A stretch of DNA of 64,000 nt from Candidatus Micrarchaeota archaeon (GTDB lineage Archaea > Micrarchaeota > Micrarchaeia > Micrarchaeales > CABMGC01), in the NCBI GenBank assembly GCA_027328425.1, contig DAHVUT010000017.1:1777-65776 (forward strand). The letters are read 5' to 3'. The notes beneath the pieces were generated by a model. The model was not told the DNA's origin, made no database searches, and saw only the letters and a program-made list of their open reading frames with translations. Positions 4,099 through 5,213 of this stretch are shown piece after piece. A program made the translations under genes and the position numbers. Within the stretch, counting starts at the first letter, position 1; each line of letters opens with the position of its first letter.

Positions 4099-4830
4099 TC
4101 ATGCACCGAGGAAGCCCGTACCTCCTCTGTTCCTCAGAGCCAGGATTATGGCGAGTATCACCACCGCCATAACTACGACGAAGACCGCAAGGCCGACGTT
4201 ACTCCCGAACGTGTTGGCGACCCCGCCTCCGTTGGCTGTGAAGTTGGCGACTATGCCTGGCGAAGCATAAGTTGATGTTCCCTGCGCAGTTGCAGAGATG
4301 GTGTTGGTAACAAAAGAGGACGGGGCAGAACCATGTAAAACGCCGCTGAAACTCTGCGTAATCTTCGCAGTGAAAGAGGGATATGCCCCGCTTGTTATGC
4401 CACCCAAATCAATGGATGAGATGTTGTAGAAATTGCCAGTTGTGGAAGTCAGCGTTTGCAGCGCCGTATCGCTTGTAACCGAGAAGGTCTGTGTCTCTGT
4501 GTTGCCTGGAACTGCATAAGCAGTATTGCTGGCATATGAACTTATTGAATTGCCTGTCAATGCAATCGTCAAAGGAGTCGACGAAGATATCCATGCGTAT
4601 GAACCTGTAAAGTCCACGGTGAGTGTATTTGCTGCCGAATCATTTACGGCATTCGCCGATGCACTGGTTAGTGAATTGCTGATTGAAGGGTTGTTGAACG
4701 CATGATTGATTTGGATCTTGGTCTGCGCGTAGCCTTGGTACATCAGAGACAGGACTATCACTAGGACAAAGACACTGATGCCGACCGCTATCAGCGCGTC
4801 GACACTCTTCTCTATCCCAGCTTCTTTCAT
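4099..4830 (-). CDS. Two-TM protein, long paralogue (N- and C-terminal hydrophobic helices flanking a ~160 aa Ser/Thr/Asn-rich insert)
   Basis: The N-terminus MKEAGIEKSVDALIAVGISVFVLVIVLSLMYQGYAQTK and C-terminus GLAVFVVVMAVVILAIILALRNRG are near-identical to those of the 100-aa neighbour. ATG at 4830 was chosen by alignment with the paralogue (the track start 4890 is probably over-extended). Confidence 0.6.
   Translation of the reverse strand: MKEAGIEKSVDALIAVGISVFVLVIVLSLMYQGYAQTKIQINHAFNNPSISNSLTSASANAVNDSAANTLTVDFTGSYAWISSSTPLTIALTGNSISSYASNTAYAVPGNTETQTFSVTSDTALQTLTSTTGNFYNISSIDLGGITSGAYPSFTAKITQSFSGVLHGSAPSSFVTNTISATAQGTSTYASPGIVANFTANGGGVANTFGSNVGLAVFVVVMAVVILAIILALRNRGGTGFLGA
4122..4224. 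repeat. Near-identical DNA block shared with 4931-5033 (1 mismatch in ~102 nt); a second block 4717-4821 matches 5097-5201 (3 mismatches in 105 nt)
   Basis: Direct comparison of the two gene copies. The blocks correspond to the C-terminal and N-terminal TM helices of the paralogues. Confidence 0.85.
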
Positions 4831-4910
4831 GCCACTTCCTTTTTCTCCATTCTTCAGATTCAACATAAAGGCGTGCCACTTGCGTGGCATCCAAGCCTCT
4901 AATGCGCCTT

Positions 4911-5213
4911 TCAGCCTAGGAAGCCTCCGTCTCCTCTGTTCCTCAGAGCCAGAATTATGGCGAGTATCACCACCGCCATAACTACGACGAAGACCGCAAG
5001 GCCGACGTTACTCCCGAACGTGTTGGCGACCCCTCCAGCGTTTGTGGTAAAGTTGGCCTGTATGCCTGCCGGAACGTTGGCGTTTACGAACTGCTGCTTG
5101 GTCTGCGCGTAGCCCTGGTACATCAGAGACAGGACTATCACTAGGACAAAGGCACCGATGCCGACCGCTATCAGCGCGTCGACACTCTTCTCTATCCCAG
5201 CACTTGATGCCAT
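4911..5213 (-). CDS. Small two-TM protein (100 aa), resembling the two-hydrophobic-helix major capsid proteins of spindle-shaped/pleomorphic archaeal viruses
   Basis: MASSAGIEKSVDALIAVGIGAFVLVIVLSLMYQ...GLAVFVVVMAVVILAIILALRNRGDGGFLG. It is the first gene of the operon, with a TATA-like ATATTTAA about 35 nt upstream. Confidence 0.6.
   Translation of the reverse strand: MASSAGIEKSVDALIAVGIGAFVLVIVLSLMYQGYAQTKQQFVNANVPAGIQANFTTNAGGVANTFGSNVGLAVFVVVMAVVILAIILALRNRGDGGFLG

Follow-up and report, generated by a model that had tools for sequence, protein, structure and literature searches.

A tandem pair of hairpin proteins in an element inserted at tRNA-Pro of a Candidatus Micrarchaeota genome, probably the paired capsid proteins of a fusellovirus-like provirus

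Results

A gene module headed by two paralogous hairpin proteins

The DNA analysed here is a stretch of 64,000 nucleotides (nt) from contig DAHVUT010000017.1 of a Candidatus Micrarchaeota genome assembly (GCA_027328425.1), which we refer to as the window and whose positions are counted from its first letter. It carries five co-directional minus-strand genes with minimal gaps between them, encoding in this order a short two-helix hairpin protein, a long two-helix hairpin protein, a three-transmembrane (TM) protein of 141 amino acids (aa), a zinc-ribbon protein of 64 aa and a giant open reading frame (ORF) (Table 1). This report is concerned with the pair of paralogues at the head of the module, the element in which they lie and their probable function as virion proteins.

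Each of the two proteins contains two 19-residue hydrophobic segments with Kyte–Doolittle hydropathy values of 2.8–3.5, which in the long copy occupy residues 12–30 and 214–232. Over these segments the two genes are almost the same DNA: the core of the C-terminal repeat (4122–4224 versus 4931–5033) has a single mismatch in 103 nt, and the longest exact run that the genes have in common is 80 nt, against a maximum of 12 nt in shuffled sequences (n = 100). The ORF of the long paralogue stays open to an upstream ATG at 4890 (4099–4890, 263 aa); alignment with homologues indicates that the ATG at 4830, giving the N-terminus MKEAGIEK, is its likely start. AlphaFold2 predicts a helical hairpin for the short copy (helices at residues 4–44 and 49–91; mean predicted local distance difference test score (pLDDT) of 70) and the same hairpin for the long copy, in which a beta-rich domain with a pLDDT of about 85–92 over residues 60–180 is placed between the helices. 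A preliminary description of this DNA, made from its letters alone, had called the pair tandem two-TM proteins with near-identical termini, of which only the long copy bears an extra loop domain rich in serine, threonine and asparagine. The repeat coordinates and mismatch counts that it gave are exact on recount, hydropathy and structure prediction return two strongly hydrophobic helices and a hairpin model for each paralogue, and the extra domain is confirmed both by the predicted beta-rich fold and by its composition, which includes 29 serine, 26 threonine, 20 alanine and 15 asparagine residues in 160 aa.

The two genes are separated by a perfect hairpin, TGCCAC-GCAA-GTGGCA (window 4874–4889, minus strand), which is followed by a U-rich stretch and whose relative position is that of terminator T1 in SSV1. 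We rejected it as a candidate partial terminator, its fold energy being no better than that of shuffled sequences (z = −0.55).

The pair belongs to a rare family with an old insert domain

A word-indexed search recovered only 7 relatives of the pair; in a full HMMER profile search, which covered 1.84 billion representatives, the number rose to 32 at E ≤ 1e-3. These 32 cluster representatives make up a family with a bimodal length distribution of about 93–121 aa and about 238–260 aa. In an alignment of 37 sequences the sole invariant residue is the asparagine in front of helix 2, which in nearly all of them is part of an N-x-S/T sequon, mostly NFT, NYT or NFS; almost as conserved are a tyrosine that follows helix 1 and another asparagine. 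The family falls into two subgroups, one with a C-terminal tail ending in GGFL, to which the window proteins belong, and one with an NYVYYILF helix followed by a basic tail; long forms occur in both. One further member, P0007 (96 aa, from an ENA contig of 1174 bp), has a loop with, by eye, about 80% identity to the loop of the window short copy, while both its helices are of the type of the other subgroup. This suggests that P0007 is chimeric and that loops and helices may be exchanged as modules by recombination.

The window insert used alone as a query matches all 13 of the other long family members, with E values from 1e-13 to 1e-41. Because the insert is thus homologous in every long form, the short/long pair is, on sequence comparison, old, and the insert is an old conserved domain, not a recent acquisition; its homology across all 14 long forms rules out a recent one-off domain insertion.

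Pattern scans with the family alignment found no relative among 185,579 species-representative genomes of GTDB, including about 60 metagenome-assembled genomes (MAGs) whose record titles name Micrarchaeota, none in IMG/VR and none in the JGI metagenomes. As judged from these empty scans, the family is rare and sporadic and is not a core gene.

Gene conversion in some lineages and selection in others keep the helices of a pair alike

We compared about 11 loci, at which the elements are incomplete, from six lineages: the window; L001–4 and L092–94; L079–81; L083–84; L085; and L091. Near-identity of the helices within a pair is seen in the window pair and in five lineages, whereas the same segments have about 43–75% DNA identity across lineages. 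Codon-by-codon comparison of the shared termini within pairs separates two situations. Synonymous differences between the shared termini are very few in the window, L001 and L080; in the N-terminal block of the window pair, for example, 32 codons are identical, 2 differ synonymously and 5 non-synonymously. Since the long form is older than the split of the lineages, the scarcity of synonymous differences indicates that the helices of these three pairs have been matched by recent gene conversion. In L083, two copies of 98 aa differ by 47 synonymous and 4 non-synonymous codons, and in L085 the two C-terminal helices are almost the same as protein while the DNA has diverged; by the same codon counts, these helices are kept alike by selection on the protein alone. 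The L083 pair therefore shows that gene conversion alone does not account for helix identity. On the simplest reading, both proteins must fit one helix-packing lattice. Of the evolutionary scenario in the preliminary description, gene conversion of the helices thus holds for some lineages, while the recent duplication with domain insertion proposed alongside it gives way to an ancient and conserved pair and insert.

The pair lies in an element inserted at tRNA-Pro

The window is of micrarchaeal origin. Its FttA/aCPSF1 protein is 95% identical to its counterpart in MAG FK1.bin85 and all of its close matches are from Micrarchaeota, and other window genes are archaeal housekeeping genes such as those for Nre, RtcB and H+-PPase. 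A related genome (L095, GCA_027363655.1; 75–84% nt identity) is collinear with the window from 20777 down to 9698. The homology ends exactly at the 3' end of the tRNA-Pro gene of the related genome, beyond which the two sequences diverge completely, and the related genome continues with genes for an HAD hydrolase, PMT_2, a GTPase and a class-I aminoacyl-tRNA synthetase, none of which is in the window. From the stop in collinearity at the 3' end of tRNA-Pro and the host genes that follow in the related genome, it follows that window 1–9697 is an insertion at tRNA-Pro in a Candidatus Micrarchaeota chromosome, the empty site being that of L095. The left end of the element lies beyond the start of the window.

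Run SRR13205814 is identified as the source sample by independently assembled Logan contigs, of which L090 corresponds to window 5172–9743 and L078 to window 2554–4174. These assemblies are interrupted within the tRNA, at 9743, and within each of the two helix repeats. The breaks fit a branch of the assembly graph at an attachment (att) site, which is only suggestive. The element also contains an inverted repeat of 32 nt (97% complementary), whose arms, at 7068–7099 and 9046–9077, lie 1.9 kb from each other.

Relatives carry the pair in a conserved neighbourhood, in three lineages with fusellovirus-type VP2

In all six lineages the tandem pair is followed by a homologue of the 141-aa three-TM protein, either directly or within 1–2 genes. 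These homologues are recovered by hmmsearch with E values from 1e-26 to 1e-65 in five lineages and much more weakly, at E = 1e-11, in L085. A very large protein of 2175, 2085 or 632 aa is usually next, the relationship among these proteins being weak. In three lineages (L079–81, L083–84 and L085) a contig bearing the pair also encodes a member of the Pfam family Fusello_VP2_Capsid (PF25632); the L080 homologue matches with E = 4.5e-17 and 62.7 bits (cutoff 27), and by eye the homologue in L083 has about 60% identity to SSV1 VP2 over its approximately 45 N-terminal residues. Other neighbours at these loci are of the kind found on mobile elements and include Hjc, Endonuclease_7, integrase and small CxxC proteins. 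One relative also codes for a tyrosine integrase (L080), a reverse transcriptase, TBP and a weakly matching TFIIE-alpha-like protein, and another for an AAA ATPase and ParB.

In the window, the slot directly before the giant gene, which in other lineages is that of the VP2 homologue, is taken by the zinc-ribbon gene; by analogy of position, its product is a possible DNA-binding substitute for VP2. The giant ORF has no Pfam match and no similarity to SSV1 VP4 or His1 VP27. In related elements the syntenic genes encode proteins of 2085 and 2175 aa, of which the former is weakly similar to the giant ORF (E = 1.5e-6), and we consider the product of this ORF a candidate tail or adsorption protein. 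Short tandem DNA repeats at window 65–142 (30-nt unit, 18/12-nt spacing) correspond to a Ser/Pro-rich repeated segment of this ORF. Upstream of the module, a TATA-like motif is a possible archaeal promoter.

Three observations stand apart from these comparisons. A reverse transcriptase gene (RVT_1, E = 7.7e-23) is located at L080 3057–4175, and the same lineage has a protein of 2043–2085 aa, complete in L079/L081; the reverse transcriptase may be part of a diversity-generating retroelement that targets this putative adsorption protein. L092 belongs to the clade nearest to the window, and its syntenic giant protein of 2175 aa (3151–9678) bears NUDIX and faint HAD-hydrolase Pfam marks, which is unusual for a presumed virion protein. 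Finally, window positions of about 24000–28540 have a GC content of 0.41 compared with about 0.55 elsewhere, adjoin a tRNA-Ala gene (28468–28540) and include an AAA_14/DUF4143 ATPase gene (25641–26927); this region may be a second foreign island.

Table 1 Features of the element and its integration junction in the window
Feature	Position	Strand	Description
Giant ORF, 5' part	1–3422	−	At least 1140 aa, runs off window start; S/T/Q/G-rich
CxxC zinc-ribbon protein	3422–3616	−	64 aa; conserved in closest clade (L001/L002)
Three-TM protein	3617–4042	−	141 aa; core-module member; homologues accompany pair in six lineages
Long paralogue	4099–4830	−	243 aa, start ATG 4830; proposed lattice-compatible capsid subunit with displayed folded domain
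C-terminal repeat	4106–4262	−	In long gene; partner 4915–5071 in short gene; 89% over 157 nt
Loop insert of long copy	4261–4710	−	Residues ~41–190, ~150 aa; predicted beta-sandwich, pLDDT ~85–92
Short paralogue	4911–5213	−	100 aa; proposed major capsid protein; helix 1 residues 13–31, loop ~38 aa with N-x-T sequon at N54, helix 2 residues 72–90; C-terminal tail RNRGDGGFLG
N-terminal-helix repeat	5097–5201	−	In short gene; partner 4717–4821 in long gene; 3 mismatches in 105 nt
Rest of visible element	5214–9697	−	Small ORFs, several with CxxC motifs; without homology to related host genome
TATA-like ATATTTAAG	5244–5252	−	~35 nt upstream of short gene's ATG; possible promoter
Hjc-like resolvase	7940–8251		Within integrated element
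tRNA-Pro(CGG)	9698–9770	−	Right-hand integration junction at tRNA 3' end (9698)

Discussion

Taken together, these observations favour a model in which the two paralogues form the capsid-protein pair of a fusellovirus-like provirus, probably a spindle-shaped one, integrated at tRNA-Pro of a member of the Micrarchaeota. We regard this model, which is read from gene content and protein architecture, as probable while leaving appreciable room for doubt. More tentatively, and with slightly less than even confidence, we propose that the pair represents an undescribed fusellovirus-like lineage in Micrarchaeota and possibly in other uncultured archaea, in which a beta-sandwich in the turn of the hairpin would stud a spindle- or rod-shaped capsid and the helices would be matched by concerted evolution.

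The preliminary description had compared the pair with the major capsid proteins (MCPs) of spindle-shaped viruses. This idea gains indirect support from the integrated element, from the occurrence of the family solely as tandem pairs on element-like contigs, from the VP2 homologues in three lineages and from the likeness of the shared repeats to those of SSV1; the comparisons do not establish direct homology to VP1/VP3. Several results, gathered here, weigh wholly or partly against the model. None of 37 family members matches the Pfam VP1_VP3 family (PF06281) at E ≤ 1, while the SSV1 VP1 and VP3 controls match at 2.4e-19 and 1.8e-38. The outcome of hhalign is two-sided: the family aligned to a small VP1/VP3 alignment over 58 columns with a probability of only 48.8%, and the score of 27.6 speaks for the model in being above all controls (15.3 and 15.7 for reversed alignments, at most 17.5 for 30 column shuffles) but in part reflects the common TM-loop-TM architecture. 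Scans of the paralogues against Pfam and PHROGs returned sub-threshold, non-specific TM matches only, a family-profile search of PDB sequences gave chance TM matches (PsbH, Vpu), and tblastn with the short protein as query matched none of 50,697 phage and archaeal-virus records. Foldseek with both paralogue models found no structural relative, the beta-sandwich of the insert being without a match in PDB or BFVD. The absence of the family from IMG/VR points the same way, as do the lack of an integrase, an AAA+ ATPase or attL within the window, past whose start the element extends, and the lack of a VP2 homologue in the window, L001–4 or L091 within the sequence available from these incomplete elements. 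Moreover, the rod-shaped APBV1 also has a two-helix hairpin MCP, and the fold alone thus does not give a spindle morphology.

The missing VP1/VP3 match and the absence of VP2 from the window's own clade are also what would be expected if the two proteins belonged to the envelope or membrane of another kind of mobile element, for instance a pleolipovirus-like pleomorphic virus or a vesicle-forming plasmid, in which the long copy would be a membrane-anchored spike and the short one a matrix protein of the membrane. The mobile-element context is in agreement with such an element, and the long copy, with its beta-sandwich ectodomain between two TM segments, could act as a spike. However, a spike and a matrix protein would have no reason to share their helices nearly residue for residue in every lineage, VP2 homologues co-occur with the pair in three lineages, no pleolipovirus-type NTPase or VP4-like protein is among the Pfam marks at any locus, and a hairpin of 100 aa with a sequon in its loop is the layout of fusellovirus and halspivirus MCPs. 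We therefore consider the envelope-protein explanation unlikely, though it deserves to be kept in mind.

Conjugative pilins are likewise hairpins of about 100 aa with two hydrophobic helices. Were the pair VirB2/TrbC/CedA1/TedC-like pilus subunits of an integrated conjugative element, the giant protein would be an adhesin; integration at a tRNA suits such an element, and 2 of 37 family members have weak matches to Pfam T4SS_pilin (E = 0.015). These matches are far below threshold and stand amid dozens of non-specific TM matches, the family is without a long cleavable leader, relatives carry VP2 homologues, and no VirB4/CedB, VirD4 or VirB6-like gene is marked by Pfam at the approximately 11 incomplete loci of the six lineages. 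We rejected this reading, for want of a transfer ATPase among the loci, as very improbable. We give still less credit to a tandem duplication of ordinary cellular membrane or surface proteins, for instance pilin-like or S-layer-associated ones. N-glycosylation sequons are common in archaeal surface proteins, and the N-terminal AG-IEK with the hydrophobic stretch that follows loosely resembles a class III signal peptide; yet the region is an insertion that is missing from a related genome, the scan of species-representative genomes found no relative, and the neighbours are element-like. As for type IV pilins in particular, which the preliminary description had already found to fit less well, the putative cleavage motif is not conserved in the family (AGIEK, MDVETG or MASISE at the N-terminus) and a C-terminal TM helix with a basic tail is always present, on which grounds we rejected them as well.

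In our model of the paired capsid proteins, both would enter the cell membrane with their termini inside and the loop outside, and the N-x-S/T sequon of the loop would be N-glycosylated on the extracellular side before budding. In the SSV19 capsid, the termini of VP1 form the inner surface and its loop the outer one, and contacts between hydrophobic helices build helical strands (PMC9351363). By analogy, the hairpins of the pair would pack side by side via their helices into helical strands of the capsid shell, with the 100-aa copy as the bulk building block. The 243-aa copy would fit the same lattice and display its beta-sandwich of about 150 aa on the virion exterior, where it might function, for example, in adhesion, shielding or stabilisation. 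The need to co-assemble would keep the helices alike, by gene conversion in the window, L001 and L080 or by purifying selection in L083 and L085, and the giant downstream protein would go into the tail or adsorption apparatus.

As far as the literature can be searched, spindle-shaped viruses have been described for Nanohaloarchaeota (10.1101/2025.02.15.638363) and Bathyarchaeia (PMC10848311) but not for Micrarchaeota. Spindle or fusello types go unmentioned in the principal study of Micrarchaeales viruses (PMC12647753), and searchable accounts of Micrarchaeota viruses are limited to automated, mostly head-tailed classifications. The pair is probably that of a new fusellovirus-like provirus group, its hairpin capsid proteins being divergent and the second of them bearing a folded domain, and no spindle-type virus of this host phylum came up in the literature searched. 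Viruses of DPANN archaea are barely known, and our model, if correct, would bring an ultrasmall symbiotic archaeon into the range of the fusellovirus-like structural module, with its hairpin capsid pair, VP2 and giant tail protein. The family of 32 representatives provides a handle for finding such viruses in metagenomes, where current virus-detection tools miss them, as the empty IMG/VR scan illustrates. The model would also imply that the outward-facing turn of a hairpin capsid protein can accommodate an entire folded domain, a point of relevance to the construction and decoration of elastic capsids and to their use as scaffolds for display. Finally, the recurrent matching of the helices, whether by gene conversion or by selection alone, would be a natural example of a co-assembly constraint that drives concerted evolution.

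Comparison with known spindle-shaped viruses

The nanohaloarchaeal spindle-shaped viruses are similarly assigned to DPANN hosts and were similarly identified from genes, namely those for the MCP and an AAA+ ATPase (10.1101/2025.02.15.638363); the likeness is one of description, and they belong to a different DPANN phylum and to hypersaline habitats. His1 VP21 of the Halspiviridae and other hairpin MCPs are, like the proteins described here, hairpins of about 73–100 aa with an acidic N-terminal stretch (MVEIDDG in His1, MDVETGA or AGIEKS in the family) and a basic C-terminal tail, and packing of hydrophobic helices builds the capsid (PMC9351363). His1, in contrast, has a single MCP gene and no tandem pair, no sequence similarity to it was detected, and the conserved 141-aa three-TM partner found here has no match in His1 (SSV1 not scanned).

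The Huangdivirus provirus of Bathyarchaeia was called spindle-shaped on the basis of sequon-bearing two-helix VP1/VP3-like proteins, a VP2 homologue and an AAA+ ATPase (PMC10848311), which is the same line of evidence as that available for the relatives L079–L085. Its VP1–3 are detectable by HHblits against fuselloviruses, whereas the family described here is more divergent, includes a long form with an insert and is from another host phylum.

The closest parallels are with VP1 and VP3 of the Fuselloviridae (SSV1, SSV19), which are also tandem two-helix paralogues of about 75–100 aa with a serine/threonine/asparagine-rich loop bearing a sequon, and in which the loop of the second copy is likewise the longer one; the loop sequons of VP1/VP3 serve as a fusellovirus trait (PMC10848311). 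SSV1 VP1 and VP3 have, as here, an acidic residue just before helix 1 and a short basic tail after helix 2, and their genes share a 61-nt, 100% identical repeat over the C-terminal helix, annotated as direct repeat 3 in the SSV1 GenBank record. In SSVRH and SSV4 the amino acids of this helix are kept while the DNA of VP1 and VP3 is identical at 60/90 and 71/90 positions. Fusellovirus genomes also encode a large tail-type protein, and VP2, as we find on related contigs. The hosts differ, being Sulfolobales for the fuselloviruses and a mesophilic or acidophilic DPANN archaeon here, and the long N-terminal propeptide of SSV1 VP1 has no counterpart in the pair. The most distinctive differences lie in the proteins themselves: fusellovirus VP1 and VP3 have only the C-terminal helix in common whereas here both helices are common to the pair, and where VP3 has about 19 extra loop residues the long copy has a folded beta-sandwich of about 150 aa.

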